Shown here: in pieces, positions 3,626-27,314 of the stretch | Numbering within the stretch: position 1 is the stretch's first letter | Layout of the letters: each line of letters begins with the position of its first letter | Source of the DNA: Gammaproteobacteria bacterium | GTDB taxonomy: Bacteria > Pseudomonadota > Gammaproteobacteria > Magnimaribacterales > D2472 | NCBI GenBank assembly: GCA_038108875.1 | Contig: JAYNII010000001.1 | Span: 101,450-165,003, forward strand | Reading direction: 5' to 3' | Length of the DNA stretch: 63,554 bases | The notes under the pieces: model-generated | Seen by the model: the letters and a program-made list of their open reading frames with translations, nothing else | Database searches by the model: none | What the model was told of the DNA's origin: nothing | Made by a program: the position numbers and the translations under genes

Positions 3626-4972
3626 ATGATTTCAAACGATAAGATCTCTAAACTTTCAAAGATTAGTTATATCTCACTTACTTTTCCATCTTCTGCAGCG
3701 GCAATGCCAATTGTTGTATATATCTTGCCATACTATGCAGATAACTTAGGTCTTGGGTTATCTATCGTTGGGTTAATTTTCTTTCTTGGTAGGATGCTGG
3801 ATGTTTTTACTGACCCTATTATGGGCTACTTAATTGATAAATATCCCTCTAGATGGGGTAAACACAAGCATTGGATTGCAGCCTCTATTCCTTTTTTAAT
3901 GATCTCAATATATTTAATATATTTACCAAACGAATCTTTGGTTAGTCCGACTTATCTTTTTTTGAGTTTATTCTTAGCCTATCTAGGATTTACTCTTTTG
4001 TTTGTAACTCAACTTTCTTGGTCTGTTGTTCTTGCTCCATCCTACGATGAGAGAACCCGATTACTGACTGCAAGAGAGTTGTTTTCTCTAATTTCCATGT
4101 TAATTATTATTGCTCTACCTGCATTAATTGAAATCTATACCTCTAGCCTTAATGCCAAAATTCAATCTATCGGTATAACATCATTATTACTCATTCCTAT
4201 TATTGTAATAGCTGCTTTATTTTTAGTTCCTGATAAGACTGATGCAATTACCGAGAGGGCTAGGGTAACTGCTGGAGAAATGCTTCGCACAGTTCTTAAT
4301 GATAAAAACCTTTCTAGGCTTGTATTTGCAAATCTCTTTTTAGCTTTCTCTCAAAGTCTTGTTGGCGCATTGTCCGTTATTGTATTCAACACTATTTTTG
4401 AATTACCAGAGTATTCTGCTCGAGCAACTTTGTTGTATTTCGTTATGGGTGCTGTGGGTCTTTTCTTTTTTAGAGGTTTAAGTCTTAAGACTTCTAAACA
4501 TTTTTCTGCCTCCGTCTGTCTTACGTATGGAGCAATTATAGTTTTGCTAGCTTGGATAATTTCTCCTTATGTTATTGGGACTAAATACTCAGTTTACTTA
4601 TTGTTTGCATTTACATTCTTTTACGGATTATCTTTTGCTGGAGCAACCCCATTGATCATGGCTATGGTTGGAGATGTATCTGAAATGCAAGAGAAAGCAA
4701 GTGGTTATAGTAAAAGTGGAGCTGTATATGCATACGTAACAACTATAGCAAAAATTGGTTTTTCGTTAGCTGCAGCAATACCTTATATTGTTTTGGAAAG
4801 GTTTGTTGGTTTTGAAGTTTCTTTAGGGGCAAATAACTCTGAATTCAGCAAAACTATTCTATGGAACATATACATGTTGGTTCCATTTTTTGGATACGCA
4901 CTCTCAGCATTTATGATTTATTCTCACCCCCATTCTCGAGATAAAGTTTCTCAGTTTAGAGGTACGCAATGA
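3626..4972 (+). CDS. MFS transporter, GPH/MelB-like family
   Basis: ~12 hydrophobic segments; [17 protein letters not shown] and YDERT motifs. Confidence 0.85.
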
Positions 4973-5139
4973 ATTACCGAAGATATGAGTGTGTAATCTG
5001 TGGGTATATTTATGATGAAGCACTTGGAATTCCTGAGGAGGGAATTAAACCCGGCACTCTTTGGCAAGATATTCCTGATGACTGGGTTTGTCCTGATTGC
5101 GGTGTAAGCAAGTATGATTTTGAACTCATAAATGACTAG
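4969..5139 (+). CDS. Rubredoxin (56 aa)
   Basis: Below ORF-track cut-off. Manual translation [56 protein letters not shown] with two CxxCG knuckles. ATGA overlap with the upstream gene and 8-nt overlap with the downstream gene. Confidence 0.95.
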
Positions 5140-6430
5140 AAAAAGCTACAGATCATTTGCTTTAATTTTATTAACCATTGTGTATGGCTTTAATTTTATT
5201 GATCGACAGATTATGGGAATACTTGCGCCTTTTATTCAAGAAGATTTAAATCTAACAAATACTCAACTGGGTTTATTAATTGGGTTTGCCTTTGCAGTAT
5301 TTTATACATTAACTGCTATACCAATTGCTTGGCTTGCTGACAAATTCAGTAGAGTAAATATCTTAGCCATTGCTCTAGCTACATGGAGTGGATTTACGGC
5401 ATTGACAGGTTTAGCCAATAACTTTATCCAAATTGGTCTTGCAAGAATGGGGGTTGGAATTGGAGAGGCTGGAGGCAGCCCGCCGTCCCATTCGATTATT
5501 TCAGATCTGTATTCAAAAGAAGAAAGAGCAAGCGCTCTTGGCGTATACTCTATGGGAATACCTTTTGGGATAATGGCAGCATTTTTTGCTACCGCAGCAA
5601 TTATGGGTCCTGGGAGCGAAGATGTAGATTGGAGAAGAATTTTTATCTTTTTAGGCATCGCAGGCTTAGTTTTAGCATTAATTGTTAAGTTAATTTTGCA
5701 AGAACCTATGAGAGGAGCCATGGAGTCTTCAAATAGATCATCAATGGAGAGGGCTCCTTTTATTGATTCTTTGAAAATACTTTTAAAGATACCATCATGG
5801 TGGGCCATGTGTTTTGGAATAGCATTTGGTTCGTTTGTTTCATATGCAAAGGGTGGATTTCAAACAAAATTTTTAGTAACACTTGATCCTGCATTTGACT
5901 TTCAAACCCTAGTTATATTGCTTGGAATAATTAACGGGACTACCTATGCAGGTGGTGCATTTTTTGGAGCTAGACTTGCAGATAAATGGGGCAGAAAAGA
6001 TGTCAGAGCATACGGATGGTTGCCTGCTATTTCAATTGCATTATGTTTACCAATTGGAGTTTTAGCCTGGTGGGCTCCTACAGTCCAAATGAATTTATTC
6101 TTTACTACTCTCTTTTTGCTCTTAATTGGAATCTACCTCGGACCATGTTTTGCAATAGCACAAACTCTCGCACCAATTCACATGAGAGCAATGTCGACTG
6201 CTTTATTCTTTTTTATTTTGAATATGATTGCTCTGGGCGGAGGTCCAACTTTTGCAGGTTGGCTGATTGATGAATTTGCAGTTTATTACAATGAGTTAGA
6301 TTCTATGAGATTTGCTATGTCAGCTACCGCATTAATTTTTATTTTATCTATTTTAAGTTTCGTGATAGTAAGCAAAACGTTACCTCAGGATTGGAGAGAG
6401 GCTGAATTGAGGAACTCTGATATTACATAA
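5132..6430 (+). CDS. MFS transporter, spinster family
   Basis: [14 protein letters not shown] and GVGIGEAG motifs; ~12 TM segments. Confidence 0.88.
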
Positions 6431-6450
6431 TAAAGTTTTTTCTCTATTCC

Positions 6451-7413
6451 TTAGCTAGTTTTATAAAAGCTGGAATAGTGCTTTCTAAATTGAGCAATAG
6501 GTCCATCTTTGTCGCATAGTACTGGTTTATCAGCATACTTCTTATGTTCCCAGATAGGAATATCCTCTTTAACTTGTTTATCAATATCAGCAATTATTGC
6601 AGCGGACACGCCTCCAACTGGAGTTTTACCATTAACTTTTTTTTGTAAAAAGAAGAATCTTGTAATGCATTTTTCTGACTCGACAGGAGTTGTCATTCCA
6701 AGGAGTAATGTATCGCAAATACCTTCAAATTTTGTAGCGCTATCACCTGGTCCATTTGAAAATGCAGTAATTTTACCCTTGATTGTGCCTCTGGGAGTTT
6801 CCATGTCAGCTCTCTGGATTGATGTTCTCTTCTGATCTTGATATGAAACTTCAAATTCAGGATAACTCACAACTCCATGGACGTATTTAAAATGTGCGGC
6901 ATCAACAGCATTTTCTGCCATATCTTGAATGTGACATTTAATATCGTATTCAAAGGCAACAAACTCATCTGCCCATTCAGGGTCATCGATTTCAGAGTGA
7001 ATCGTAACCTCATAGAGGGGATTTATACCATCAGGGTGATACCAGGCATAAATCAAATTATTAGCTTCAACAGTAGGGTACCTAAAAATTCTTACTTCCT
7101 GAGCTTTTGGAGGAATTTTGGTTGCATAAGGAATTTCACTAATGGTTCCATTCGTTTTCCATCTCCAGGCATGAAAAGGACATTCGATGCAATTGTCACG
7201 AACAATGCCTCCATGTCCCAAATGAGCACCAAGATGAGGACAGTATGCATCTAGCATGGCTACTTCACCATTTTCACCTCTAAAAAGTACTTGATCTTGT
7301 CCAAAATACCTAACTGCCTTCACTTGGCCCTTAGTTAAGTTAGCGCTGGTATCTACACAATACCAACCAAAAGGAATGGGTAACGGGTATCTTTTGTTTT
7401 CAAATTCGCTCAT
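6451..7413 (-). CDS. Rieske non-heme iron oxygenase of KshA (3-ketosteroid 9alpha-hydroxylase)/Neverland (cholesterol 7-desaturase) type
   Basis: Rieske CPHLG...CPFH; mononuclear Fe motif ENAVDAAHFKYVH; C-terminal D..IW..K....P.LC..DGPI..FR.....FY. Confidence 0.82.
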   Translation of the reverse strand: MSEFENKRYPLPIPFGWYCVDTSANLTKGQVKAVRYFGQDQVLFRGENGEVAMLDAYCPHLGAHLGHGGIVRDNCIECPFHAWRWKTNGTISEIPYATKIPPKAQEVRIFRYPTVEANNLIYAWYHPDGINPLYEVTIHSEIDDPEWADEFVAFEYDIKCHIQDMAENAVDAAHFKYVHGVVSYPEFEVSYQDQKRTSIQRADMETPRGTIKGKITAFSNGPGDSATKFEGICDTLLLGMTTPVESEKCITRFFFLQKKVNGKTPVGGVSAAIIADIDKQVKEDIPIWEHKKYADKPVLCDKDGPIAQFRKHYSSFYKTS

Positions 7414-8279
7414 AGTTTTAAAAGTTTTTTAGCATTTTCACCAAGGAATTTTGGCCAAACATCATGATTAAAATCTACTTTAGGAAGATCTTCAAATATT
7501 CTTTCAAGTGAAAGCCCCATGGGAAAATACCCAGCATAAAGAATTTTGTCTGAACCTCTTGTATTTGCATAGTTGATGATTGCTTTGGGGTAATGCTTTG
7601 GAGCAAATGCGCTAGTTGAGTAATATAAATTAGGATATTTGAGCATTAATTTTACTGCTAAATCTACCCACGGTTCTGCACCATGTCTCATAACAAATTT
7701 CAATTCAGGGAAGAACCAACAAACCTCATCAATTAACTCAACTTTTTGAGGAGCCATTGGAATTCTTGGTCCAGGAACTCCCACGCAGCAAAAGAAGGGA
7801 ATATCTAATTCTATGCATGTTTCATAAATGGGGTGCCATTTGGAATTGTTGATAGGGATTTGTGGATACATACCAGCTGGAAAGGCACTTACCGCTTTTA
7901 TGTTATATTTTTTATGTAGTTCTTTGATTCTAGAAGCTTCTTTGTCACTTTCATTAGGGTTTACAGGGAGATCAAAAATAAACCTGTCAGGGTGATTTTG
8001 CTGTGCATAAATTTTAGTTTCAGATGACTCATGAAATCCAACCATGGCAATGTCAATGAAATGTTTATCCATTTGATCTAAAGTGTATTTCACATAATCA
8101 TCATGTGAACCTGTTTCAGGAATATCTTTAAACATGTATTGTGCTGGCATTTTAAAAAGTTTCTTAGACTCTTCATCTCTAAGCAATGGTTCCATAAAGG
8201 AATACCACTCTGAACGATCCTCGCTTTCAGGAATACCTAACATTAGATCAACGGTAAAGATCTCTTTATTGAAACTCAT
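7410..8279 (-). CDS. Amidohydrolase_2 family protein
   Basis: PELKFVMRHGAEPW, YPNLYYSTSA and KILYA..FP motifs. Confidence 0.8.
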   Translation of the reverse strand: MSFNKEIFTVDLMLGIPESEDRSEWYSFMEPLLRDEESKKLFKMPAQYMFKDIPETGSHDDYVKYTLDQMDKHFIDIAMVGFHESSETKIYAQQNHPDRFIFDLPVNPNESDKEASRIKELHKKYNIKAVSAFPAGMYPQIPINNSKWHPIYETCIELDIPFFCCVGVPGPRIPMAPQKVELIDEVCWFFPELKFVMRHGAEPWVDLAVKLMLKYPNLYYSTSAFAPKHYPKAIINYANTRGSDKILYAGYFPMGLSLERIFEDLPKVDFNHDVWPKFLGENAKKLLKL

Positions 8280-8379
8280 ATATAGATTTTAACCATTTAA
8301 AGTTTAATATCAGTGAAATGAGAAAAAAAGATCAAAAAAATAATTGAAGAGTTGACGAAAGAAAATCTCACGTTACTCA

Positions 8380-9159
8380 TTAAGACATAAATTCTCCACC
8401 GTTTACATCTAAATTAGCACCAGTAATAACTTTTGCTAAGTCTGATGCAAAGAACAGAGCTGCGTTTGCACAATCTCTATCGTTGGGAATGAATCCAAGG
8501 GGTATATCTTTAGTGATGCCATTTATGATATTTTTTGGTTCAATCCCCATGGCTTGAGCAGTTTGATTAACATAAGTTTCTACAGGAGGTCCCCACATCC
8601 AGCCCATATAAACACTGTTTACACGAATTCCATATGGTCCCAGTTCTTTTGCAAGAATTTTAGTGCTAGCAGTAAGCGCTCCCTTGGATGCCGCATATCC
8701 ACCTTGGGTTTGCAGTGGCTTTTTTGTGATTAAACTATTAATCATTACTATGGAACCAGATGATTGTATTTTCATTTGTTTTACAGCCTCCAAAGTTAAT
8801 TGCATAGTTCCAAAATAATTTGTATTCATGGTTTCTTTCCAGTCTTCCATGCTACCTTGATCAAATTCTGTAAAATTTCCTGGCCTATAGGCGCTATTCA
8901 AGAGGCAATCTACTTTTCCAAATTTTGATACAGTCATTCTGATAAGGTTCTTGCATGATTCTAGGGATGTGATGTCGGTTATAACGCTCAGAACTTCATT
9001 TCCTTGAGAACTAATGTTTCGTTCTACTTCATTTAATTTGCTTTCAGTTCTGGCAGCTAGAACAACCTTTGCACCTTCTTCTGCTGCCCCATAAGCAAGC
9101 TCTTGACCTAATCCTGGTCCAATACCAGAAACTATTACCACCTTATCTTGTAAAATCAT
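8380..9159 (-). CDS. Short-chain dehydrogenase (resembles mycobacterial Rv3530c)
   Basis: SGIGPGLG glycine motif and YAASK catalytic motif; resemblance to Rv3530c is from memory. Confidence 0.85.
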   Translation of the reverse strand: MILQDKVVIVSGIGPGLGQELAYGAAEEGAKVVLAARTESKLNEVERNISSQGNEVLSVITDITSLESCKNLIRMTVSKFGKVDCLLNSAYRPGNFTEFDQGSMEDWKETMNTNYFGTMQLTLEAVKQMKIQSSGSIVMINSLITKKPLQTQGGYAASKGALTASTKILAKELGPYGIRVNSVYMGWMWGPPVETYVNQTAQAMGIEPKNIINGITKDIPLGFIPNDRDCANAALFFASDLAKVITGANLDVNGGEFMS

Positions 9160-10304
9160 AATTTCCCTATGTATGTATCTATGTATGTTTTAAATTTTTC
9201 TTGAATTTCACCTTTGGATAGGCCGTATTCTTCTAAGCTATATTTATGTGAGCCCATTTCATGCTTGTTTTCTTCTTGCCAAGCCTTCATGGCATTTTCT
9301 GTTTGATCAGCAAAATCTTCATTAATGAAAGAATAGATTTTTTTCATTTCATTGAGAGGTTCCTTAATCATATTTCTGAAATCTAAATGAATAAAACTTT
9401 CCTCATTGGCTTTACTTATTTCGTAACAGTGATGAAGAACATTGCAAAGCTTGTCTTGCCAATGGCGCGCTATTCTTTGTTTGTTAAAATCTGTAGTAAG
9501 TTGTTCAGAAAGATTTGCGCACATTGAACCAAAGGAAGGAACTGTATCAAGTGGAGTTCTATGAGTCTGTATTACTTTGGCGTCAGGGAATACTTCAAGG
9601 ACTTTATCAATAAAACCTAGATGATGAGGAGACTTTAAGATCCATCTCTTCTGATCTCTACCAGGTGTTTGCCATTGCAAGTATTGAAGTTGTTTTTTTA
9701 AAAACTCATAAACTACGAGATGATTCTGTTCTTCTATCCATGCTGAATATGATGGGAGGTGCATACATGATTCTGGAACAGTACTAAGAAATGTATGTTC
9801 AATTAATAATATTTCTTCATCAGCTCCATTAAAATCCCAAGGATGAATATTCAATGCTTCAGGAGATGCTGCTAAAACTGCTTCAACCTCAGCCTCGCCA
9901 AGTTTCATTCTTTCTGTAGGATGACCTTTTTTTTCATTAGGGAGAATAGCAGGATATCTTCCTTCCCACCAAAGCATAGCAGTATGATTTGGATCTGATG
10001 CTAATAGTCTATGCGTCATAGTAGACCCAGTCCTAGGAAGACCAACAATCACTATAGGTCTTAAAATTTTTTGATCTAGTATTTCTGGATTTTGTTTAAA
10101 AGCATCGATTGTCCGCAAGAGATTTGACAATAGTCCAATTATCCTGTGTTCTTGTGCTTGGAGGCCTATGTTATTAAGAGAAGCCTCAGTGTTGATGCTC
10201 TTAATGAGATTGTGGAAACCCTCCATGAATAAATTAGGACCAAAATCATTCTTGCCAGTTAATTCTTCTGCTCGTTTAATTAGATTTTTTGGATTAAGAG
10301 TCAT
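9156..10304 (-). CDS. Sulfotransferase family protein (Rv3529c-like)
   Basis: PAPS-loop GLPRTGST; WILKSPHHL, FPDAKVIQTHR and HKYSLEEYGL motifs. Confidence 0.85.
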   Translation of the reverse strand: MTLNPKNLIKRAEELTGKNDFGPNLFMEGFHNLIKSINTEASLNNIGLQAQEHRIIGLLSNLLRTIDAFKQNPEILDQKILRPIVIVGLPRTGSTMTHRLLASDPNHTAMLWWEGRYPAILPNEKKGHPTERMKLGEAEVEAVLAASPEALNIHPWDFNGADEEILLIEHTFLSTVPESCMHLPSYSAWIEEQNHLVVYEFLKKQLQYLQWQTPGRDQKRWILKSPHHLGFIDKVLEVFPDAKVIQTHRTPLDTVPSFGSMCANLSEQLTTDFNKQRIARHWQDKLCNVLHHCYEISKANEESFIHLDFRNMIKEPLNEMKKIYSFINEDFADQTENAMKAWQEENKHEMGSHKYSLEEYGLSKGEIQEKFKTYIDTYIGKL

Positions 10305-10308: not shown

Positions 10309-11364
10309 TTATTTTAGTTCGCTTAACTTTACTAGTGATACATTGGGTATAGAAGGACATTTACAATTTATCCACCTTAGCAACATCGCGCCTTCTGTGT
10401 GGTCTTGCGTAATAAGATTGTTTAATAGGTTCTCATCTCGATGAGTTACATGAATGACTAATTCTTTGTTGTTTAATTTTGCGTTGGAGTTATTAATGTG
10501 AATTTTATTAAACCTATAGTCTAAGGATTCCATCCAAAAATTTTCTAGTTGAAAGTTCCAAAGTTGACAGTCTGGGATTGTTGTTTTTATAACTAAGCAC
10601 TCATTTGGTTCGATTTTATAATAACCATGTAAGTAAATTATGCTTGGATCGCCACCCGCAGCCTGAAAAAATTCTTGATCGCCAAGAGGGAGAGCATTTA
10701 AGTGTCGTAATTTGAAATCTCCCGTCCATTTCAGAAATGTGCTGGCTGTTCCGGCAACAAAGTTCAAAGTCATTTTTAATTTATGATGTAAATCTTCATC
10801 ACTAAGTATTGGTAAATGAAAATCTGTATGAATTGCTTCTATGTTTATCGTGGCTCTTTTATCATTCATTTTCGATCTGTAAGTTTCTCTGACGATTAAC
10901 ATATTAGAATCTGGACGCATTCTCAAATCAGCATTTTTATCTTGACTTATTAAAACAGAAAAATTTCCATTTTGGTCTGTATCTCTCGATGTGATTTCTA
11001 ATTCAGCATGAGAAATCATAGTTCCATCAATGTGGTATCTATTTTGCTTAATTCCAATACTCAAATATTCAACTTCCCCAAAATTTCCGGAAATTTTGTA
11101 AGATTGAGCAGGGTTAAGATTTGCATTTAAATAGACATTATCTGGGTTATCACCTCCTATTTTTGCAGTTTCATTAGAGAGTGAGTAAAAAGAGGGGTGA
11201 TGGGGAAAACTATGCTCAAAATTCATTTCGCTGGACAGTCTCAATAATCTAAGTAAATACCTATACCCTTCATTTCTTGATAAATTATCTGGAGCATTTT
11301 TATCAATCATTCCGCCTAAGTTTTTTAACTCATCGCAGAATTCTTCCCATGCTTTAAGATTCAT
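10309..11364 (-). CDS. DUF1214-containing protein
   Basis: EGYRYLLRLL, GGDNPDNVY, WNFQL.NFWMESLDYR and LLRW motifs typical of this family. Confidence 0.75.
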   Translation of the reverse strand: MNLKAWEEFCDELKNLGGMIDKNAPDNLSRNEGYRYLLRLLRLSSEMNFEHSFPHHPSFYSLSNETAKIGGDNPDNVYLNANLNPAQSYKISGNFGEVEYLSIGIKQNRYHIDGTMISHAELEITSRDTDQNGNFSVLISQDKNADLRMRPDSNMLIVRETYRSKMNDKRATINIEAIHTDFHLPILSDEDLHHKLKMTLNFVAGTASTFLKWTGDFKLRHLNALPLGDQEFFQAAGGDPSIIYLHGYYKIEPNECLVIKTTIPDCQLWNFQLENFWMESLDYRFNKIHINNSNAKLNNKELVIHVTHRDENLLNNLITQDHTEGAMLLRWINCKCPSIPNVSLVKLSELK

Positions 11365-11421: not shown

Positions 11422-12489
11422 ATGCCAGCACCACAAGAGAGAGATTTAGTAAAAACGGCTACTTCTTTAAAAGAATGGTTTATACATTCTCAAGGACTAG
11501 ACCCTGATATTAAAATTCAGATTAAAGGTGGACCTGAAAACACAGGTTTTTCAAATGAAACTCTGACTTTTAGCATTCAATTTAATAATGGTAAATCAGA
11601 TGGTTATGTAATTAGATTTACTCCAAAAGGATATAAAGTTTTTCCTGAGTATGATATTAAAAAACAGTACCAATTGATGCATTTCCTTGAAAAACATGGA
11701 GTAAAAGTTCCTCATGTAATTGCCTTCGAAGATGATACATCTATTCTTGACTCTAGCTTTTACTTAATGCGTGAATGCAGTGGACAGGCACCTTCTGATA
11801 ATCCGCCTTTTCATCAAGTTGGCTGGGTGTTTGATGCTTCTCCCGAAGTAAGATTAAGAATGTGGAAGAATTGGTTAGATGAGATGATTAAAGTTCATCA
11901 AATAAATATTGAAAACAATTGCGTTGACTTTCTTAATAGACCCAATTTGGCTAATAACCACTTGGATCAAGAATTAAATTTTTATTTTAACTTCCATGAT
12001 TGGGCCATGGATGGAGAAAGTCACCCAATAGCAGAAAGCGCTAAAGAGTTTCTTATTAAAAATAAACCTAAAACTGATAACCTCCAGTCAAGAATTGTCT
12101 GGGGAGATTGCAGGCTAGCTAATGTAATGTATTCATCAAATGGCGAATTATCTGCAGCCTTAGATTGGGAGATGGCAATTTTAGGAGATCCTTGCCTTGA
12201 TCTTGCTTGGGGTATTGCAATTGATGATTGTAATAGTTTGGGGTTAAACATTCCTAAATTACCGGGATTTATGAGCACAGAAGAAACTATCTCTTATTGG
12301 GAAAAACATAGCGGATTTAATGCAACTAACTATGATTATTTTTACATATTAGCTTTGTATAAATTTACTGTAATAATGACTAAAGTTGTTAAAAAACTTG
12401 AATATTATGAAATCCTCCCGAAAGGTCTCGGTGCTCATATTAATAATCATGCAAGTGGTATGTTAGCTAAGCATATGGAGTCACATTAA
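11422..12489 (+). CDS. APH/choline-kinase-like phosphotransferase (acyl-CoA kinase-like)
   Basis: GFSNET, WGDCRLAN (Brenner-type) and LDWEMAILGDP motifs. Confidence 0.82.
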   Translation: MPAPQERDLVKTATSLKEWFIHSQGLDPDIKIQIKGGPENTGFSNETLTFSIQFNNGKSDGYVIRFTPKGYKVFPEYDIKKQYQLMHFLEKHGVKVPHVIAFEDDTSILDSSFYLMRECSGQAPSDNPPFHQVGWVFDASPEVRLRMWKNWLDEMIKVHQINIENNCVDFLNRPNLANNHLDQELNFYFNFHDWAMDGESHPIAESAKEFLIKNKPKTDNLQSRIVWGDCRLANVMYSSNGELSAALDWEMAILGDPCLDLAWGIAIDDCNSLGLNIPKLPGFMSTEETISYWEKHSGFNATNYDYFYILALYKFTVIMTKVVKKLEYYEILPKGLGAHINNHASGMLAKHMESH

Positions 12490-15938: not shown

Positions 15939-15940
15939 CT

Positions 15941-17625: not shown

Positions 17626-18205
17626 CTTTCTTATACCTATTAAATTATCCGATAATCCAAAATCTCGGCTGAGTAAAGTATTGTCTCTAAACAAAAGAAT
17701 AGAATTTATGGAGTTTTGTTTGACTAATTTAATCAACTCTATATACGCAGTCATTCCCAACCCTGATATCCATCTTCTTATCAAAGGAATAAATGAAAAA
17801 GTATTTGCAGTTAATAAGCATTTTTCAGATCTGCCACTCAATCAGGCAATTCTATCCGTCACTAATAATCTTTTTGAATTTGGTCACCGCATAACAATTT
17901 TGCATGCAGATCTTCCTATATTGACAGAAGAATCAATAATCAGAATTAATCAAACAATACCCAAAAATGAAGCATATATTTATCCGGATGAATATCTCTC
18001 TGGCACAAATGGACTTACCTATACTCATGGTTCTATTAAAAAATTTGTTTTTGGGGATTCCAGCTACTCGAATTTTATTAATCTAGCCAAAATTGAAAAC
18101 ATAGAGATGATTTCTGTGAATGACCCTGGAATTGCATTTGATCTAGATGATGAAGAAGATTTTATTAAAGTTCCTCAAAATATACGTAACAAACTGTTAG
18201 ACTAG
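17618..18205 (+). CDS. cofC: 2-phospho-L-lactate/PEP guanylyltransferase (CofC/FbiD)
   Basis: IPIK....KSRLS, LNQA, ADLP, GTNGL and FDLD motifs; position between cofD and fbiC. Confidence 0.88.
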   Translation: MHSFLIPIKLSDNPKSRLSKVLSLNKRIEFMEFCLTNLINSIYAVIPNPDIHLLIKGINEKVFAVNKHFSDLPLNQAILSVTNNLFEFGHRITILHADLPILTEESIIRINQTIPKNEAYIYPDEYLSGTNGLTYTHGSIKKFVFGDSSYSNFINLAKIENIEMISVNDPGIAFDLDDEEDFIKVPQNIRNKLLD

Positions 18206-18221
18206 TTATGTTAGTAAATCT

Positions 18222-20630: not shown

Positions 20631-21509
20631 ATGCCATTGAGGGATTTGTTTACAATTGCTATCGGTTATTTAGCAGTCATTTTCATCATGTCTTATCTTT
20701 TTGGTTTTTTTCTAGGCTATCCGATTTTTATTAACTTGTTGTTTGTGGATACGATTGGAACAATTTGTATTTTTGGTTTGAGTTTATTTTGGAGAAATTC
20801 AAGCTGGTACGATGCCTATTGGTCAGTCATTCCACCAGTGCTATTGTTATTGCCTTATTTTCATGGTTTTGAAATCAGTTCTTCTTCTAGAATGTTTCTA
20901 ATCATTGTAGCCACTTTGTTTTGGGCTATAAGATTAACCTTTAACTGGGTTCGAAATTGGAGCGGGTTTTCACATGAAGATTGGCGTTACATTAGTATGA
21001 AAAGCTCACAAAAAACTAAGCTTGGCAAAGTTACTATTGATTTTTTAGGTATTCATTTAATTCCAACTCTATGTGTATTTATTGGCTTAATACCGGCTGT
21101 TAATGCTTTGTATGCAAGTGAAACTCAAATTAATCCTATTGATCTAATAGCATTTGGAATAATATTTATTGGAGTGATGTTACAAATCGCATCCGATCAA
21201 CAGATGTTCAATTTTAGACAAGACTCTAGTAATAAGGGTAAAACTATGCAGTCAGGATTTTGGTTTTATTCAAGACATCCAAATTATTTCGGTGAACTTA
21301 TGTTTTGGCTAGGATTGTGTATTTTTGGATTTGCATCTCAGGATTTTGAATATATAAACTTTTTAGGAATTATTGTAATGTATTTGTTAATTGCAGTGGG
21401 ATCTGTAAAAATGATGGACGATCGATCGCTTAAATCAAGGGCTGATTTTGCATCTTATGCAGATTCTACACCAAAGATATGGATGAATTTATTTAAAAAA
21501 AGGTTTTAA
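20631..21509 (+). CDS. DUF1295 / steroid 5-alpha-reductase-like membrane protein
   Basis: NSSWYDAYWS, EDWRY and SRHPNYFGE motifs; multiple TM helices. Confidence 0.85.
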   Translation: MPLRDLFTIAIGYLAVIFIMSYLFGFFLGYPIFINLLFVDTIGTICIFGLSLFWRNSSWYDAYWSVIPPVLLLLPYFHGFEISSSSRMFLIIVATLFWAIRLTFNWVRNWSGFSHEDWRYISMKSSQKTKLGKVTIDFLGIHLIPTLCVFIGLIPAVNALYASETQINPIDLIAFGIIFIGVMLQIASDQQMFNFRQDSSNKGKTMQSGFWFYSRHPNYFGELMFWLGLCIFGFASQDFEYINFLGIIVMYLLIAVGSVKMMDDRSLKSRADFASYADSTPKIWMNLFKKRF

Positions 21510-21511: not shown

Positions 21512-22801
21512 ATGAAAAAAATTTTACTAGCTCTTATAGCGATTTCTGGATTTTCTAGTGGCCAATCCTTATCCGAACAACTTGATAAAGATATTAACGG
21601 TTTGATGAGTAAAGTAATCGAGTGGCGTCACCATTTTCATCAATATCCAGAATTATCTAATCGAGAATTTAAAACATCCGAGTATATTAAAAATGTTTTA
21701 GAGGATTTAGGTCTAGAAGTTCAAAGCAATATTGCACGCACAGGCTTGGTTGCAATGATACGGGGATCACAACCCGGTCCTCTAATAGCTCTTCGCGCTG
21801 ATATAGATGGTCTGCCTGTAACTGAAGAACTAGGTTTGCCATTTTCCTCAAAGGAAAGAACAACTTATCAGGGAAATGAAGTGGGTGTTATGCATGCATG
21901 TGGACACGATGCTCATATAGCAATCCTTCTAGGGGTTGCTGAATACTTGGTTAAGAATACCGATAAAATAAAGGGCGACATCATGTTAATCTTTCAACCT
22001 GCTGAGGAAGGCGCTCCAGAAGGAGAAGAGGGCGGAGCCTTTTTAATGCTTAAAGAAGGAATCTTTAATTTAGAGAAACCCGATGCCATTTTTGGTCTTC
22101 ACGTTACCAACGGTAAACATGGCTCAATATTTTTAAAACCTGGGCCAACCATGGCATCTGCTGAAGCTTTTAGAATTACTGTAGAAGGTAAGCAAACTCA
22201 CGGTTCTAGACCGTGGGCAGGGGTCGACCCTGTAGTTGCAGCTTTCAATATTGGTACTACCATGCAGACCATAGTCTCGAGGAGGTTAAATATCCTTGAT
22301 AGTCAGGCTGTAGTTTCGATTGGTATGGTAAAAGGGGGTACTCGTAACAATATCATCCCTCAACAAGTAGTATTAGAAGGAACTATCAGAACTTTTGAGA
22401 AAAGTTACTTGGATCAGATTCACAAAGAAATCAAAACAATAGCGACTAACATTGCAGAGGCTCATAATGCAACAGCAAAAGTTGAACTAGCCATTTACGG
22501 TAATTACCCAGTCACTTTTAACGATTTAAATCTTTCATCTCAACTTGAATCTTCACTGATCAAAGCCAGTGATAATAACTATATGAGAATGAATGTTCCA
22601 AGAACTGGAGCTGAAGATTTTTCATTCTTTGCTCAAGAGGTACCAGGTCTATATTTCTTTTTAGGAGTGAATCCTGAAAATCAAGAATCTAGTTTTACTA
22701 ATCACTCTCCGAGGTTTTATGTAGATGATGATGCTCTTGATACAGGAGTAAAGGCCTTTATCCAGTTAGTTGAAGATTTTAGCGAAAACTTTAATCAATA
22801 G
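21512..22801 (+). CDS. M20 amidohydrolase with signal peptide
   Basis: HQYPELS, RADIDGLP, MHACGHD, FQPAEEG, AEDF and HSP motifs. Confidence 0.9.
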   Translation: MKKILLALIAISGFSSGQSLSEQLDKDINGLMSKVIEWRHHFHQYPELSNREFKTSEYIKNVLEDLGLEVQSNIARTGLVAMIRGSQPGPLIALRADIDGLPVTEELGLPFSSKERTTYQGNEVGVMHACGHDAHIAILLGVAEYLVKNTDKIKGDIMLIFQPAEEGAPEGEEGGAFLMLKEGIFNLEKPDAIFGLHVTNGKHGSIFLKPGPTMASAEAFRITVEGKQTHGSRPWAGVDPVVAAFNIGTTMQTIVSRRLNILDSQAVVSIGMVKGGTRNNIIPQQVVLEGTIRTFEKSYLDQIHKEIKTIATNIAEAHNATAKVELAIYGNYPVTFNDLNLSSQLESSLIKASDNNYMRMNVPRTGAEDFSFFAQEVPGLYFFLGVNPENQESSFTNHSPRFYVDDDALDTGVKAFIQLVEDFSENFNQ

Positions 22802-23924
22802 TTGGAAGCATTTTATTAAGATTGTCTACAACATCTAAATACTCGTGTACTAACCTAGAGATAACATTTTTGGTTGATTCAATTTCGTTAAGCTGTCCAA
22901 TAACTTGACCTGCTGCGTTAAAGGAAACTTCCTGCGCTTTACCTTTATCGGCATATATTGAAGTTCTTCTAATGGCATCATAGGTAATCATGCCCTGTAA
23001 AGGCATGGGCAATGGTTTAGGATTGGCAGGGTTTTCCCAGGCATCTGTCCATGCATTTCTTAGCATGCGGGCAGGTTTTCCAGTCCATGATTTGCTTCTG
23101 ATAGTATCTTCGCTGGTAGCATTTAAATAAGATTTTTTTTGTGCAGGTTGAGTAAAAGCTTCTTCAACTGTTAACCATAAAGAACCAGTCCAAACTCCTT
23201 GAGCTCCCATTGCAAGCGCAGCAGCCATTTGCCTTCCGTTACCAATTCCCCCAGCAGCTAGAACTGGAAGATCTCCAACAGCATCTATTATCTGAGGCCA
23301 TAAAACTATGCTACCAATTTCACCAGTATGACCTCCGCCTTCACTCCCTTGAGCAACTATGAAATCTAGACCTGCTCTTTTATGTGCCAAAGCTTGTTTA
23401 ATTTTTCCACAGAGCGCTCCAATTAACACACCTTGTGATTTAACTTCCTTTATTACTTCCTTCGGAGGTGTTCCTAAAGCATTTGCAAAGAGTTTCACAT
23501 TTTTTCGTTTGAGAGCTTCCTCAACTTGAGGCTCAGCGGTTGCCTGAGTCCAACCTAACAGACCTCCTTTGGGACCATTGCTATTTTCAGCAATTGGAAC
23601 ACCATGATCAGATAATAATTTTTCAACGAATGCTCTATGCTCTTTCGGAATAGCTTTTTCTAAGCTCTCTAAAAGCTTCTGTGGATCAAGTTCATCCATA
23701 CCCTCATATTTTTGAGGTATAACAGTATCTACCCCGTATGGTCTGTCTCCTATATGAGCATCAATCCAATCAAGCTCCTCTTGAAGTTGTTCCAGCGAAA
23801 ATCCTACAGCGCCTAACACACCAATACCTCCAGCTTTGCTAACAGCAACAACTACGTCTCTGCAATGAGTGAAGGCAAAGATTGGGTATTCAATTCCCAG
23901 TTTTTTACATATTTCAGTTTGCAT
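22791..23924 (-). CDS. Nitronate monooxygenase/FabK-like flavoprotein (Rv1894c-like)
   Basis: Start moved to ATG 23924 (MQTEICKKLGIEYPIFAFTHCRDVV); AQGSEGGGH and AAGGIG motifs. Confidence 0.85.
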   Translation of the reverse strand: MQTEICKKLGIEYPIFAFTHCRDVVVAVSKAGGIGVLGAVGFSLEQLQEELDWIDAHIGDRPYGVDTVIPQKYEGMDELDPQKLLESLEKAIPKEHRAFVEKLLSDHGVPIAENSNGPKGGLLGWTQATAEPQVEEALKRKNVKLFANALGTPPKEVIKEVKSQGVLIGALCGKIKQALAHKRAGLDFIVAQGSEGGGHTGEIGSIVLWPQIIDAVGDLPVLAAGGIGNGRQMAAALAMGAQGVWTGSLWLTVEEAFTQPAQKKSYLNATSEDTIRSKSWTGKPARMLRNAWTDAWENPANPKPLPMPLQGMITYDAIRRTSIYADKGKAQEVSFNAAGQVIGQLNEIESTKNVISRLVHEYLDVVDNLNKMLPTID

Positions 23925-23982
23925 AATAAGGGTTATATAATCTAGATAATTCGAATTATAAAAAAATATAGGAAATACTACC

Positions 23983-25701
23983 ATGAATAAAAATTGGGAC
24001 TATGAGTATGATGTTGTTGTAGTGGGTTCTGGTAATGGTGCTCTTACAGCTGCACTGTGCTCCCATGATGGAGGAGCAAAAGTTTTAGTCATAGAGAAAA
24101 GCGCTCAATTGGGAGGAACTAGTGCGTCCTCAGGTGGAGGTGTATGGATTCCAAATAACAGATATGCAATTGCTGCTAATGCAGATGATAGTATACAAGA
24201 AGCAAGGGATTACATATCTAGCGTTTCCCCTGAAGGGAAAATAAATCCTGAACTTATTGAGACCTATATTCAAGAAGGTCCAAAAATGATTGATTACTTG
24301 CACAATAATTCAAGAGTAAAGTACTTAAATCTTCCTCATTATCCAGATTATTTTCCTGACAACCCAGGAGGCAAGGCTGGAAATAGATCTATGGAACCAG
24401 AGCCTGTTTTTGGAACTGAGCTTAAAGATGACCTAAGGCTCTTGAGAGATCAGCACCCACAAACTACATTTAGAATGGGTCCTATTACGATGAACTTTAC
24501 TCAAGTTGAGGGGCAACTCTTATTAGGAGCATTACCAGGATGGAAAAAATTATTTGCAAAACTTTTTTCCAAATATATTTTAGATATTCCCATGCGATGG
24601 AAATGGGGTTGGAAAGATAGAAGACTAACTATGGGTAATGCAGGGGTTGCAAGACTTTTACTTTCTCTTAAAGACAGAAATATTGCCATTTGGTGCAATA
24701 CTGCGTTCACTGATCTTATAACTAATGCTAAAAAAGAAGTAATTGGTATTAATGCATTGAAAGAGGGAAAGTCTATTTCAATAAAAGCACATAAAGCGGT
24801 TATTTTAGCATCTGGAGGGTTTGAAAAAGATCAAGCCCTAAGAGAAAAATATCTTCCAAAGCCTACAGATGCTTCTTGGAGTGCTGCTAATTCTTATAAT
24901 ACCGGTGACGCACTTAAAGCTGCTTTGAAACTTGGAGCACAAACGCATCAAATGGATTGGGGCTGGTGGTCAACTACAATGAAAGTTCCTGGAGTTGAAA
25001 AGGGCTGGTTATCAATGGTGGATAAGTCCATGCCTGGAAACTATACAGTTAACAAAAACGGCGAGAGATTTTCTAACGAATCCCAAAATTATGTCAGTTT
25101 TGTAAATGATATGTTTAGCGAATATTCAGCTGGGAATCCTTGTGCACCATGCTATATGATTTTTGATAGTAATTTTAGACAGAATAGGCCATGTGGGCCT
25201 TTATTACAGGCGAGCATGCAACCTGATAGTAGAGTCCCCAAAGAGTGGTGGACTCCATCTTTCTTAACTAAAGCAGAAACCCTAGAAGAGCTTGCAATCA
25301 AAGTTGGAATTAATGCTGAAGGTTTATTAGCCACACAGAAAAAAGTTAATGAATATTCAATAACTGGTATCGATCCAGATTTTAAAAGAGGCGACACTGT
25401 CTATGACAGATATTATGGGGACCCAACTGTAACTCCAAATCCCTGTTTAGCTCCTCTTCAAAAAGCTCCATTTTATTGTATGGTTTTGTATCCAGGAGAA
25501 ATGGGAACAGCAGGAGGTCTGGTTATTGATTCCAAAGCCAGAGTTCTTGATCAAGAATCTCAACCCATAAAGAATTTATATGCTTGTGGAAATTGCACAA
25601 CAGCATTGCTTCCAAAATATCCTGGTCCTGGATCGACATTAGGTCCTGCGATGACTTTTGGATATCTTGCAGCAAGAGATATAACTGGAGCTAACTTTTG
25701 A
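23983..25701 (+). CDS. kstD: 3-ketosteroid Delta1-dehydrogenase
   Basis: FAD motif VVGSG, GGTSA.SGGG.WIPNN; conserved tyrosine contexts YPDY, NE...Y and YPGPGSTLGPAMTFGY; adjacent KSI. Confidence 0.85.
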   Translation: MNKNWDYEYDVVVVGSGNGALTAALCSHDGGAKVLVIEKSAQLGGTSASSGGGVWIPNNRYAIAANADDSIQEARDYISSVSPEGKINPELIETYIQEGPKMIDYLHNNSRVKYLNLPHYPDYFPDNPGGKAGNRSMEPEPVFGTELKDDLRLLRDQHPQTTFRMGPITMNFTQVEGQLLLGALPGWKKLFAKLFSKYILDIPMRWKWGWKDRRLTMGNAGVARLLLSLKDRNIAIWCNTAFTDLITNAKKEVIGINALKEGKSISIKAHKAVILASGGFEKDQALREKYLPKPTDASWSAANSYNTGDALKAALKLGAQTHQMDWGWWSTTMKVPGVEKGWLSMVDKSMPGNYTVNKNGERFSNESQNYVSFVNDMFSEYSAGNPCAPCYMIFDSNFRQNRPCGPLLQASMQPDSRVPKEWWTPSFLTKAETLEELAIKVGINAEGLLATQKKVNEYSITGIDPDFKRGDTVYDRYYGDPTVTPNPCLAPLQKAPFYCMVLYPGEMGTAGGLVIDSKARVLDQESQPIKNLYACGNCTTALLPKYPGPGSTLGPAMTFGYLAARDITGANF

Positions 25702-26453
25702 ATTCACTAAAAAATAAAATAGCAGTTATTTCAGGATCAGGGCAGGGTGTCGGTGAAGGAATAGCCTTAGCACTTGCTTCCTACGGCGTGAAAGTAGCCC
25801 TCCTGGGCAGAACTTTTGCAAAAGTCGAGCAAGTTGCAATGAATATTAAGGAAAATGGTGGAAATGCTTTGCCTGTTGAATGTGATGTTAAAAATTTAAA
25901 CAGTATTACTGAAGCAGTTGATAAAGTAATTGCTGAATATGGGACTATAAATATTCTTGTTAACAATGCTCAGGAAGTTCCCCTTGGTTCGATTTTGGAT
26001 GTTACTGATGAAGCAGCTGAAAATGGTTGGAAATCAGGGCCCTTAGCATCTTTAAGATTTATGAGAACTTGTTATAAATATTTAAAAGGAAATGGCTCTG
26101 TTATTAATTTAGCGAGCTCGTCAGCCTTGAGACCGGATTCTGCTGGTTATGGCGTTTATGCTGCAGTTAAAGAAGCTATTAGATCTATTACCAGAACTGC
26201 TGCTGTTGAATGGGGTCCTGATAATATCAGGGTAAATGCAATCATGCCTCTTGCTATGTCCAAAGGTATGGAATGGTGGATGAAAGAGAGACCAGATGAA
26301 GCCAATGAATTTTTGAGAACTATACCTTTAGGTAGAGTTGGAGACTGTAAAGATGATATTGGGATGGCTGTTTGTAAACTTCTAACAGACGATATGAGCT
26401 ATATTACAGGAAGTACCATCATGCTTGATGGTGGACAAGCATTTTTAGGATAA
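25698..26453 (+). CDS. Short-chain dehydrogenase, possible hydroxysteroid dehydrogenase
   Basis: SGSGQGVG, NNA and YAAVK motifs; TTGA overlap with kstD. Confidence 0.85.
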   Translation: MNSLKNKIAVISGSGQGVGEGIALALASYGVKVALLGRTFAKVEQVAMNIKENGGNALPVECDVKNLNSITEAVDKVIAEYGTINILVNNAQEVPLGSILDVTDEAAENGWKSGPLASLRFMRTCYKYLKGNGSVINLASSSALRPDSAGYGVYAAVKEAIRSITRTAAVEWGPDNIRVNAIMPLAMSKGMEWWMKERPDEANEFLRTIPLGRVGDCKDDIGMAVCKLLTDDMSYITGSTIMLDGGQAFLG

Positions 26454-26455
26454 TT

Positions 26456-26941
26456 ATGGACACGCTGGAAAAACTATTTGCCATTGAAGAAATCAAACAA
26501 CTTAAACACAGATATTTTAGAGCTATAGATATGGCTGATTTTGATTTGTTAGATGAAATTTTTCATCCTGATATAAAAGTAGACTACAGAGGCGGAACTT
26601 ATAGATGGGAACAATCAGGCAAAGAAGCTATAATTAAAGCTCTAAAATATTCATTCCACAGTCAAGCCGCAGCTATGCACACTGGTCATCACCCTGAAAT
26701 ATCGATCGATTCCTCAATAACAGCGTCAGGCAAGTGGTACCTTCATGATATTTTTTTTAATTTTAATGAAAAAATTGTTACTCAGGGGACTGCGCTCTAT
26801 GAAGATGAGTATATGCACGATGGGGTCTCTTGGAAAATTATTTCTTCTCAATACGACAGAATTGTAGAGTCTATATCACCTATTGATGAAAATATGAAAT
26901 TTACAAAATTCATGCTTAAAGATAAAGGAATAAAGTTATAA
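26456..26941 (+). CDS. SnoaL/NTF2 protein, BaiE (bile-acid 7alpha-dehydratase)-like
   Basis: IEEIKQLKHRYFRAID, HTGHHPEI, ASGKWYL and YEDEY...W.I motifs. Confidence 0.78.
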   Translation: MDTLEKLFAIEEIKQLKHRYFRAIDMADFDLLDEIFHPDIKVDYRGGTYRWEQSGKEAIIKALKYSFHSQAAAMHTGHHPEISIDSSITASGKWYLHDIFFNFNEKIVTQGTALYEDEYMHDGVSWKIISSQYDRIVESISPIDENMKFTKFMLKDKGIKL

Positions 26942-26942
26942 C

Positions 26943-27314
26943 ATGAAAGATGTGTTACAGGTTATGCAAAGCTATGTAAAGGCTTACAGAGATAATGATA
27001 AAAACTTATTCTTAAATCTTTGGGATGAAAATGCAATTTTTGAGGATCCTGTAGGTACAGAGCCAATGGTAGGAATAACTAAAATCTCAGATTTTTGGGA
27101 TTTTGGTCATACAGGTTTTTCTATTATGCCAGTAGGTGAGTCATTCCTTGTATGCGGTGAAGAGGGGATATTGCAGGCTCTTATGCAAGTTAGGAATCTT
27201 GATGATGCTTCAGGTATGGATATAAAAATTGTTGATCACTTTCAAGTAACAATTGAGAACAAAATAAAACACCTTAGAGCTTTTTGGGATCAGTCCTCAA
27301 TTACCTCTGCTTAA
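26943..27314 (+). CDS. ksi: Ketosteroid (Delta5-3-ketosteroid) isomerase-like NTF2 protein
   Basis: Catalytic-type Tyr (SYVKAY), Asp in FEDPVG, Asp in IVDHF; C-terminal LRAFW. Confidence 0.75.
   Translation: MKDVLQVMQSYVKAYRDNDKNLFLNLWDENAIFEDPVGTEPMVGITKISDFWDFGHTGFSIMPVGESFLVCGEEGILQALMQVRNLDDASGMDIKIVDHFQVTIENKIKHLRAFWDQSSITSA

Follow-up and report, generated by a model that had tools for sequence, protein, structure and literature searches.

This study concerns a 63,554-nucleotide stretch of a gammaproteobacterial genome (G000:C1:101450-165003, referred to as the window), and in particular its positions 3626-27314, where a complete operon for biosynthesis of the cofactor F420, fno-cofE-cofD-cofC-fbiC, is embedded among genes for steroid catabolism. 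The source genome comprises 1.24 Mb in 34 contigs, is 89.7% complete and has ~35% GC, and loci related to the window are titled "SAR86 cluster bacterium"; the streamlined, SAR86-like host proposed in an earlier reading of the DNA alone (the sequence-only reading) is therefore correct. Genes were called from an open reading frame (ORF) listing together with Pfam and NCBIfam profile scans, and the steroid enzymes were compared with proteins in the PDB. Every gene which that reading had named was located in these scans at its coordinates. Relatives were surveyed across the order, in 250 other SAR86 genomes from 22 genera and four families, with a closer set of 40 relatives; the genera discussed are labelled g1 (the window's own), g9, g10, g11, g14 and g19, and genomes are labelled G plus a number. 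Judged by its gene content and gene order, the region is a conserved accessory island of ~24 kb in a SAR86 (Magnimaribacterales) sublineage predicted to degrade steroids.

The F420 operon and its downstream genes

The five F420 genes form a complete set at positions 15303-20630 (Table 1), all on the + strand, and neighbours overlap or stand apart by no more than 16 bases. CofD exceeds its Pfam cut-off. CofC passes the Pfam cut-off alone, falling below the NCBIfam equivalog cut-off (TIGR03552, 85.5 bits vs 105), and cofC is the fastest-evolving gene of the operon, with 29-33% identity between genera. FbiC scores 927 bits with the model of the fused protein (NF006687), which is under the cut-off of 1018, and both of its CxxxCxxC radical-SAM motifs are invariant across six orthologues.

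The cofE gene called in the sequence-only reading is confirmed, and its start is corrected here. The frame is open from 15893 and contains no ATG, GTG or TTG start before 16430; the likely start, as read from the sequence, is a non-canonical ATA at 15941. The same situation is seen throughout genera g1, g9 and g10, where cofE has no ATG, GTG or TTG near the expected N-terminus and conserved ATA or ATT codons just past the fno stop are the likely starts, and the orthologues in g11 and g14 start with ATG or TTG. Automatic gene callers would shorten cofE to 93 amino acids (aa). The CofE frame encodes 272 aa, to which the FbiB-type C-terminal (dehydro-F420) reductase domain is not fused, and the genome holds one stand-alone nitroreductase gene, at G000:C10:42739-43296, which is a candidate for such a reductase.

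Divergent from fno lies the gene for SDR2, a short-chain dehydrogenase/reductase (SDR) of the enoyl-reductase type, and this arrangement recurs in SAR86, Halieaceae and Spongiibacteraceae at 45-48% identity. Because CofE lacks the fused dehydro-F420 reductase domain, we speculate that SDR2 could belong to F420 biosynthesis. A scan of the region for promoters and terminators returned sites in numbers not above those of shuffled sequence (43 found vs 72 expected; 10 vs 12.5). The only notable site is the best promoter-like one, at 15290-15263 on the - strand with 11 of 12 matches, which faces SDR2.

The + run does not end with fbiC. A DUF1295 membrane protein gene begins with the very next base past the fbiC stop as a same-strand continuation of the operon, and it directly follows fbiC in seven of the nine relatives with downstream sequence, including G028 of the steroid-negative genus g14, as well as G024; it was not seen downstream of fbiC at G040 (g14) or at the left locus of G016. 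Between DUF1295 and the NMO-like gene the sequence-only reading had overlooked an M20 family gene (21512-22801), which closes the cof-DUF1295 run in g1, g9 and g10. Possible roles for the M20 protein include trimming of the glutamyl tail of F420, deconjugation of bile-salt-like compounds, or something unrelated.

An A-ring module to the right of the operon

An SDR, a ketosteroid isomerase (KSI), a 3-ketosteroid delta1-dehydrogenase (KstD) and a BaiE-like protein together form the usual A-ring module of steroid degradation, and the right arm of the island looks like such a module because its KstD, BaiE-like and KSI-like proteins match solved steroid enzymes. The alignment of the KstD-family protein to 7p18, a structure that we take to be from Sterolibacterium denitrificans, is full length (query residues 8-568 on residues 7-558 of 561). 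The protein is under the NCBIfam equivalog cut-offs (NF005882, 507.8 bits vs 788; NF009478, 501.7 vs 789) and also matches the cyclohexanone-carboxylate desaturases ChcC1 (357 bits) and ChcC2 (299 bits). On the basis of these alignments, we assign it to the KstD family and consider it to be probably KstD itself. When the KSI-like protein is aligned to 1ocv, its Y11, D35 and the D of "VDHF" fall on Tyr14, Asp38 and Asp99, presumably the catalytic residues of the Comamonas testosteroni enzyme; overall similarity is weak, with 25.3 bits for Pfam SnoaL_2 (cut-off 27) and 16.7 for TIGR02096.

The divergent NMO-like and KstD genes have annotated start codons that overlap by 2 bases, so that at least one of the two start calls is probably too far upstream. 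At the other end of the NMO-like gene, its 3' end overlaps that of the M20 gene by 11 bases. The right half of the window, at 29000-63554, contains 33 ORFs of at least 100 aa, which are listed as ORFs only.

Table 1. Genes of the region under study and its right flank (window positions), with the steroid-related gene groups found elsewhere in the source genome
Feature	Position	Strand	Best matches and remarks
MFS_2 transporter	3626..4972	+	PF13347 174.5 bits; kept at the left edge of the block in relatives
MFS_1 transporter	5132..6430	+	PF07690 135.8 bits
KshA-family Rieske oxygenase paralogue, 320 aa	6451..7413	-	PF00355 73.5 bits; KshA_C PF19298 106.3 bits; KshA 4qdf 148.4 bits
Amidohydro_2 family hydrolase/decarboxylase	7410..8279	-	PF04909 72.2 bits; no NCBIfam match
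SDR1 oxidoreductase	8380..9159	-	adh_short_C2 158.5 bits
Sulfotransfer_3 family protein	9156..10304	-	PF13469 129.2 bits
DUF1214-like protein	10309..11364	-	PDB 6ans "uncharacterized protein" 235.8 bits; Atlas feature score 0.97 to DUF1214 clusters (lead only)
APH-family phosphotransferase	11422..12489	+	PF01636 73 bits
Aldehyde dehydrogenase (ALDH)	12489..14012	+	PF00171 427.8 bits
Hypothetical 141-aa ORF	14014..14439	-	
SDR2	14486..15247	-	adh_short_C2 174.4 bits; divergent from fno
fno (npdG), F420:NADP+ oxidoreductase	15303..15938	+	TIGR01915 184.9 bits vs cut-off 149.8
cofE, F420-0:gamma-glutamyl ligase	15941..16711	+	TIGR01916 285.6 bits vs cut-off 180.65, on open frame 15893-16711
cofD, 2-phospho-L-lactate transferase	16708..17625	+	PF01933 122.4 bits
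cofC/fbiD guanylyltransferase	17618..18205	+	PF01983 47.2 bits vs cut-off 22
fbiC (fused CofG-CofH), FO synthase	18222..20630	+	TIGR03550 481 bits (cut-off 213); TIGR03551 488.9 bits (cut-off 374)
DUF1295 membrane protein (steroid 5-alpha-reductase / ICMT superfamily)	20631..21509	+	PF06966 153.2 bits; PF02544 Steroid_dh 31.1 bits
M20 family amidohydrolase/peptidase	21512..22801	+	PF01546 132.9 bits; M20_dimer 41 bits; last gene of the + run
NMO/FabK-like FMN enzyme (family of IpdC-type enoyl reductases)	22791..23984	-	PF03060 160.2 bits; FabK 5gvj 116 bits
KstD-family 3-ketosteroid delta1-dehydrogenase	23983..25701	+	7p18 "3-oxosteroid 1-dehydrogenase" 475.6 bits; PF00890 (FAD_binding_2) 239.5 bits
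SDR3, candidate hydroxysteroid dehydrogenase	25698..26453	+	adh_short_C2 159.8 bits; substrate suggested by position only
BaiE-like SnoaL_4 protein, candidate steroid dehydratase	26456..26941	+	PF13577 81 bits; 4l8o (bile acid 7-alpha-dehydratase) 77.5 bits, residues 4-156
KSI-like protein (SnoaL_2)	26943..27314	+	Comamonas testosteroni KSI 1ocv, full length, E = 4.2e-6
pdxJ, glutaredoxin (grx), ferritin-like and MBL-fold genes	27321-29711		Just right of KSI
Second steroid-like cluster, upstream of the window	G000:C1:31544-64821		Three TonB-dependent receptors; SnoaL_4 gene and TIGR03619 luciferase-like (LLM) gene; OYE-type reductase; kshA2; ADC-family gene; P450; kstD2; kshA3; hsaA-like; acyl-CoA synthetase; hydratase; two acyl-CoA dehydrogenases; MacAB-type exporter
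Single-strand run	contig C13		hsaC-like dioxygenase; ipdA-like CoA-transferase subunit; 245-aa gene; echA20-like; NMO-family ipdC-like; hydratase and acyl-CoA dehydrogenase genes (one IpdE2-like); thiolase; SDR; P450; hsaD-like hydrolase; hsaE-like; hsaG-like
Genes completing that run in a relative	contig C23		hsaF-like aldolase; LLM; split KshA; AsnC-type regulator genes; fadD3-like ligase

The left arm

To the left of the operon lies a KshA-family paralogue among a set of tailoring genes. The two MFS carriers reported in the sequence-only reading are present, at the far left end of the region rather than adjoining the operon. With 320 aa, the KshA-like protein is ~70 residues shorter than the solved KshA chains that it matches (386-394 aa, 117-148 bits), and orthologues stand at the same place in g1, g9 and g10 with 73-90% identity. 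A better KshA_C match is encoded elsewhere in the genome, by the split kshA of the hsa operon described below (193.2 bits vs 106.3). As for the gene that had been labelled DUF1214, no Pfam match was found at E <= 0.05, so that the label now stands on the Atlas and 6ans matches given in Table 1. The hypothetical 141-aa ORF is found in genus g1 only (two same-genus relatives) and may not belong to the system. It had been considered as a hidden small F420 reductase, and this idea was dropped as the ORF has no Pfam, NCBIfam or useful Atlas match (Atlas model pLDDT 0.47).

The rest of the steroid pathway

The ring-opening and later steps were sought in the whole genome by crude ORF calling (1225 ORFs), which also served to find paralogues; assignments to the 9,10-seco pathway reflect family membership and gene order. 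The sequence-only reading had held that its proposal would fail if the remaining pathway were missing from the genome. The pathway is found: homologues of hsaA, hsaB, hsaC, hsaD, hsaEFG, ipdAB and echA20 are present, together with an ipdC-like gene, a thiolase, a fadD3-like gene and a split kshA. hsaC and hsaD were identified with the BphC and BphD models at scores under the cut-offs of those models, as would be expected of non-biphenyl orthologues. On contig C13 the echA20-like gene encodes an enoyl-CoA hydratase of the PRK08290 type that is over cut-off, as are the thiolase and the SDR, and the 245-aa gene after the ipdA-like gene is taken to be ipdB by its position only, having no family match. 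The C13 and C23 genes form one uninterrupted collinear operon in G010, a closed genome from another genus. The genome also has an HsaB-like flavin reductase and one ferredoxin-reductase-type gene. The pathway found agrees with published predictions for SAR86 (PMC4810484, PMC11582366).

The kshA of this hsa operon is split into a Rieske gene of 143 aa and a KshA_C gene of 281 aa (193 bits), at G000:C23:1828-3117 and at G010:C1:900507-901759. The split is thus kept in two genera, and it may reflect either two true genes or a frameshift.

Further paralogues include a second KstD, 45% identical to the first, and three further KshA-type genes, which brings the genome to two KstD and at least four KshA-type genes. 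This redundancy bears on the substrate of the island. The island might act on non-steroid alicyclic or isoprenoid compounds, or on conjugated or sulfated bile-salt-like ones, rather than on algal sterols, its steroid look-alikes being paralogues and F420 being involved or not; passages of a study of SAR202 propose LLMs acting on alicyclic matter (PMC5395668). Besides the paralogues, such a substrate would fit a KstD that lies under every NCBIfam KstD equivalog cut-off and matches ChcC1 and ChcC2, a short KshA-like protein with a KshA_C score well below that of the split KshA, and the presence of sulfotransferase, M20, Amidohydro_2, APH and ALDH genes, which are outside the textbook steroid pathway. 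However, the best solved match of the KstD is a sterol-specific enzyme, aligned at full length, the KSI-like protein retains the three catalytic positions, the BaiE-like, KSI, KstD and SDR genes make up the usual A-ring module, and the genes for ring cleavage and HIP are in the same genome. We therefore regard a non-sterol substrate as unlikely.

Candidate F420-dependent enzymes

The sequence-only reading had proposed a search of the rest of the genome for F420-dependent enzymes, among them those of the luciferase-like (LLM) oxidoreductase class, and this is where the candidates lie: five LLM genes are present, none of them inside the window, and four exceed the cut-offs of TIGR03617 or TIGR03619, which are NCBIfam subfamilies of F420-dependent LLMs. 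Those on C2 and C10 score 385.4 and 403.7 bits with TIGR03617 (cut-off 278), and those on C4 and C1 score 195.4 and 195.3 bits with TIGR03619 (cut-off 167). The LLM on C1 is the SnoaL_4-linked gene of the second steroid-like cluster (G000:C1:37806-38702), located 6-14 kb from kshA2, kstD2 and hsaA. The fifth gene, at G000:C23:923-1777, lies between hsaF and kshA in two genera, the proteins of G010 and of the source genome being 58% identical. The two TIGR03617 LLMs adjoin genes for acyl-CoA synthetase, acyl-CoA dehydrogenase and acyltransferase, not steroid markers. Among the 40 relatives, LLM genes occur in all 10 that have fbiC and in none of the 30 others. No match to the FDOR-type family PF04075 was found in the genome, and control genomes were equally silent; PF01243 gives one 32-bit match, at C11:42418, which is probably an ordinary PNP oxidase.

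These data also bear on whether the operon makes redox-active F420 at all, since fbiC alone is enough in some bacteria to make FO (8-hydroxy-5-deazaflavin), which could serve only as the antenna of a DNA photolyase. Here the operon also has conserved cofC, cofD, cofE and fno genes, four LLMs exceed F420-LLM cut-offs, and the PF00875 photolyase domain was not found in the 89.7%-complete genome. FO production for a photolyase alone is therefore rejected as very improbable.

Distribution and synteny within SAR86

fbiC was found in six of the 22 genera, namely g1 (2/2 genomes), g9 (6/7), g10 (21/25), g11 (1/1), g14 (7/8) and g19 (3/3). KstD is present in five of these six and absent from g14 (0/8), and the ipdA-like marker, which is unlinked to the island, is distributed over the same five genera and is likewise missing in g14 (0/8). 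Neither KstD nor the ipdA-like marker was found in the 16 fbiC-negative genera. By genus, then, five have both gene sets, one has cof genes only, none has steroid genes only and 16 have neither (Fisher p = 0.0002). In the closer set, fbiC is found in 10 of the 40 relatives, and KstD in eight of those 10 and in 0 of the 30 others.

The linkage of cof and steroid genes proposed from the single locus is kept in relatives. Gene order from the KshA-like gene through to KSI is the same in g1, g9 and g10, three genera of one family, at 54-75% FbiC identity. In g11 and g19, of a second family, the block is rearranged, yet KstD is about 1-7 kb from fbiC (1-2 kb in g19); in g11, KstD, KshA-like, SDR, ALDH, APH and Amidohydro_2 genes are within ~15 kb of the cof operon. 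The usual distance between KstD and fbiC in SAR86 is 1-6 kb. At eight of the 10 named SAR86 island loci KstD is at most 10 kb from fbiC, one locus ends at a contig end, and one is without KstD in range. In G130 (g10) the distance is ~50 kb. In g14 the cof genes adjoin pdxJ-grx directly (with DUF1295 between in G028) and no steroid genes are nearby; G028 keeps an orthologue of the C10-type LLM only, and orthologues of the LLMs of the steroid clusters are absent.

A tree of RpoB was built from 36 genomes, leaving out G002 (no RpoB match), four f3/f4 genomes and g19. The three genera of the window's family that have both fbiC and steroid genes form a single clade (SH-aLRT 99). In the sister clade, the closed, fbiC-negative genomes G006 (L120:15598-16347) and G003 (L122:3203-3940) have an orphan full-length CofE, 49-50% identical, encoded directly upstream of pdxJ, with no fno, cofD, cofC or fbiC near it. 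This orphan may be the relic of a lost operon, or a gamma-glutamyl ligase for another use. Its position upstream of pdxJ suggests that the cof operon was ancestral at the pdxJ site and that the present pattern is one of joint loss.

Occurrence outside SAR86

The nearest relatives of FbiC are found in Pseudohongiellaceae, Halieaceae, Porticoccaceae, Spongiibacteraceae and similar marine groups. At 70 fbiC loci that are not SAR86 islands, fno-cofE-cofD lies beside fbiC in 41, a divergent SDR2 is present in 18 (e.g., L048, L081 and L104), and an LLM in seven. Cultured bacteria among these relatives (Zhongshania, Halieaceae) have fbiC and, in some cases, steroid genes beside it. Of 399 other genomes sampled class-wide, fbiC was found in 16 and the ipdA-like marker in three, with both in two genomes of different families; this overlap (2/3 vs 16/399) has a one-sided Fisher p = 0.0044, a value that reflects tiny numbers and is possibly confounded by ecology. 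One genome with both markers is G454, a closed genome of 1.7 Mb from another gammaproteobacterial family. There, at G454:C1:283001-318000, the cof operon is flanked by an NMO orthologue (62.5% identical), SDR2, a P450, a KSI-like gene and an LLM.

Is F420 functionally linked to steroid catabolism?

The anatomy of the region is well supported. The organism is predicted both to degrade steroids and to make F420, and the genes for the two traits are interleaved on the chromosome in an arrangement that is conserved. From these observations a functional scheme can be drawn. Fno would charge F420 from NADPH, and the F420H2/F420 couple would serve LLMs acting on steroid or steroid-derived alicyclic intermediates, for which there are two candidates, one inside the hsa operon and one SnoaL_4-linked in the second cluster. 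F420 would not be exclusive to the steroid pathway, and other LLMs would use it as well. The right arm would provide A/B-ring activation through an SDR, KSI, KstD, the BaiE-like dehydratase and the NMO/FabK-like enoyl reductase, and the left arm would contribute the KshA-family paralogue, tailoring enzymes and two MFS carriers, with the ring-opening and C/D-ring steps encoded elsewhere.

Several independent hints favour a functional link of this kind: one LLM lies within the hsa operon, another, of the F420 type, lies in the second cluster, unlinked loci share the distribution of the island, and the neighbourhood is found again in G454 and in Sterolibacterium. Four facts weaken it, namely the lack of an F420 enzyme in the island, genus g14 with its F420 genes but no steroid genes, the small number of independent events and generally high synteny. 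Considering both sides, functional coupling of F420 to steroid catabolism in this lineage is plausible, and we judge it about as likely as not.

The points that weigh against a link concern the enzymes, the phylogeny and the wider distribution. Pfam and NCBIfam scans of 3626-27314 reveal no recognisable F420-dependent enzyme. The hsa-operon LLM is under cut-off (best TIGR03619 score 97.2 bits vs 167), and its PDB matches are mixed, with the F420-dependent Mer at 55.9 bits and the FMN-dependent RutA at 47.5. The canonical 9,10-seco pathway needs no F420, and HsaB-like and reductase partners are present here. Since g14 keeps cof genes and LLMs without KstD or ipdA, F420 has steroid-independent uses. 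The minimum number of changes on the RpoB tree is three for cof and two for the steroid genes, with two independent pairs; because there are only two, the genus co-occurrence carries no statistical weight, and the genus-level p value given above is not counted as evidence here. Conserved order alone is weak evidence, as the unrelated flanks (pdxJ, grx and others) are equally syntenic. Beyond SAR86, a steroid-like gene is found within 10 kb at only four of the 70 non-island fbiC loci. Three of the four are from Spongiibacteraceae, where kshA-hsaC-hsaA lies upstream of the cof operon, and this adjacency is weak evidence only because pyruvate kinase and a globin gene intervene (Zhongshania). Finally, G583 has the ipdA-like marker without fbiC.

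Several of these points would also be expected if the adjacency were historical and functionless. Under such a scenario a general cof operon stood ancestrally upstream of pdxJ, steroid genes accumulated or stayed beside it in one compact, highly syntenic lineage, and F420 serves non-steroid LLMs. The cof genes that abut pdxJ-grx in g14 without KstD or ipdA, the orphan cofE upstream of pdxJ in G003 and G006, the two or three independent changes on the RpoB tree, an island without an F420 enzyme, and the 66 of 70 non-island loci with no steroid-like gene within 10 kb are all consistent with it, as are the TIGR03617 LLMs beside acyl-CoA genes and the C10-type LLM that G028 keeps. Such a history does not readily account for an LLM within the hsa operon in two genera or for an F420-type LLM 6-14 kb from kshA2, kstD2 and hsaA, nor for an unlinked ipdA operon distributed like the island. 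In addition, KstD stays near fbiC even in the rearranged g11 and in g19, two of the three ipdA-positive genomes of the class-wide sample carry fbiC, and the neighbourhood recurs independently in G454 and in Sterolibacterium (PMC6678751). We regard a purely historical adjacency as a serious possibility and, taken by itself, a somewhat doubtful one.

The F420-linked steroid system put forward in the sequence-only reading is thus borne out as to linkage, pathway and candidate LLMs, and it is held back by an island with no F420 enzyme and by only two or three independent changes. Its further statement, that F420H2 regenerated by Fno drives reductive steps, remains something that we infer, because of that lack in the island, the sub-cut-off score of the hsa LLM, the g14 exception and the few independent changes. 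A bolder and tentative proposal, which at present we would not favour, is that marine oligotrophic Gammaproteobacteria (SAR86 sublineages and probably others) run steroid catabolism with at least one F420-dependent step, in which F420H2 made by Fno feeds one or both of the hsa-operon and SnoaL_4-linked LLMs. A further user of F420H2 might be the DUF1295 protein, which belongs to the steroid 5-alpha-reductase superfamily. Under this proposal F420 would gain a first defined physiological role in Proteobacteria, tied to sterol turnover in the surface ocean.

If F420 is indeed part of the steroid pathway, a textbook catabolic route would be found to need a further cofactor. There would then be a reason why genomes of 1.2-1.5 Mb keep, in a patchy manner, so costly a cofactor pathway, and biocatalysis would gain candidate enzymes that transform steroids with F420. 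Should the linkage be no more than historical, the prediction that SAR86 sublineages make F420 is still a useful annotation.

Comparison with known systems

Steroid catabolism in SAR86 has already been predicted, by Bergstrand et al. (2016, PMC4810484) and by Freel et al. (2024, PMC11582366). According to the latter, a few SAR86 genera carry tesI, hsaA, hsaC, hsaD, fadD3, kshA and kstD, some genera are predicted degraders of sterol rings, and few bacterial groups of the surface ocean are as abundant as SAR86 (PMC11582366). F420 is absent from the main texts of both articles and of the first SAR86 genome paper. Relative to the aerobic 9,10-seco pathway of the Comamonas testosteroni type, the genome described here has the same KstD, KSI, KshA-type, hsaA-G, ipdAB, echA20, ipdC-like, thiolase and fadD3-like genes; an F420 operon amid steroid genes, an LLM in the hsa operon and a split kshA within that operon lie outside the pathway as described.

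In the Outlook of the field's main review, Grinter and Greening (2021, PMC8498797) count the reason for which Proteobacteria produce F420 among the open questions, and the words Gammaproteobacteria, steroid and cholesterol do not occur in the main text. The bacterial F420 biosynthesis described in that text has the same gene set as the operon here, with a fused FbiC as in Proteobacteria, a single-domain CofE, and Fno for NADPH. The present operon differs from the systems covered there in its 1.24 Mb SAR86 host, its cofE without a canonical start, its CofE without the FbiB-type C-terminal reductase domain, and its appended DUF1295 and M20 genes.

A parallel in gene arrangement is the cholesterol gene cluster of Sterolibacterium denitrificans. 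The legend to Figure 11 of Olivera and Luengo (2019, PMC6678751) places cofC, cofD and cofE (SEDNCHOL_10763-10765) directly beside steroid genes, their neighbours being the steroid acyl-CoA synthetase ACS3 and genes for a steroid delta-isomerase, an enoyl-CoA hydratase, an SDR and acyl-CoA dehydrogenases. The article names F420 this one time, in the legend, with no functional comment. Considering this legend and the published predictions for SAR86 (PMC4810484, PMC11582366), the phrase "undescribed system" in the sequence-only reading was too strong. The likeness to Sterolibacterium is that of cof genes beside steroid genes, and the difference is the oxygen-independent 2,3-seco route in that organism.

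To our knowledge, the role of the mycobacterial protein Rv3520c is uncharacterised. It is a predicted F420-dependent LLM from the cholesterol catabolic region, counted in passages of PMC12855090 among the enzymes of cholesterol degradation in mycobacteria. The LLMs described here are of the same class, but none of the five is in its family (TIGR03559, 45-77 bits vs 335). For SAR202, passages of Landry et al. (2017, PMC5395668) propose that alicyclic dissolved organic matter is oxidised by LLMs of the FMN/F420 type. That proposal shares its idea with ours, in that LLMs of marine bacterioplankton, along with SDRs, P450s and CoA-dependent enzymes, would act on rings of the sterol or hopanoid kind. 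SAR202, however, belongs to the Chloroflexi and has very many LLM paralogues, whereas the genome described here has five LLMs, a canonical seco pathway, and a cof operon inside its steroid genes.

In the main texts searched, no publication was found that links F420 functionally to steroid catabolism or describes F420 genes for SAR86. Both sides, the catabolism of steroids by SAR86 and the presence of F420 in Proteobacteria, are known, and it is their combination in one conserved neighbourhood that would be new.

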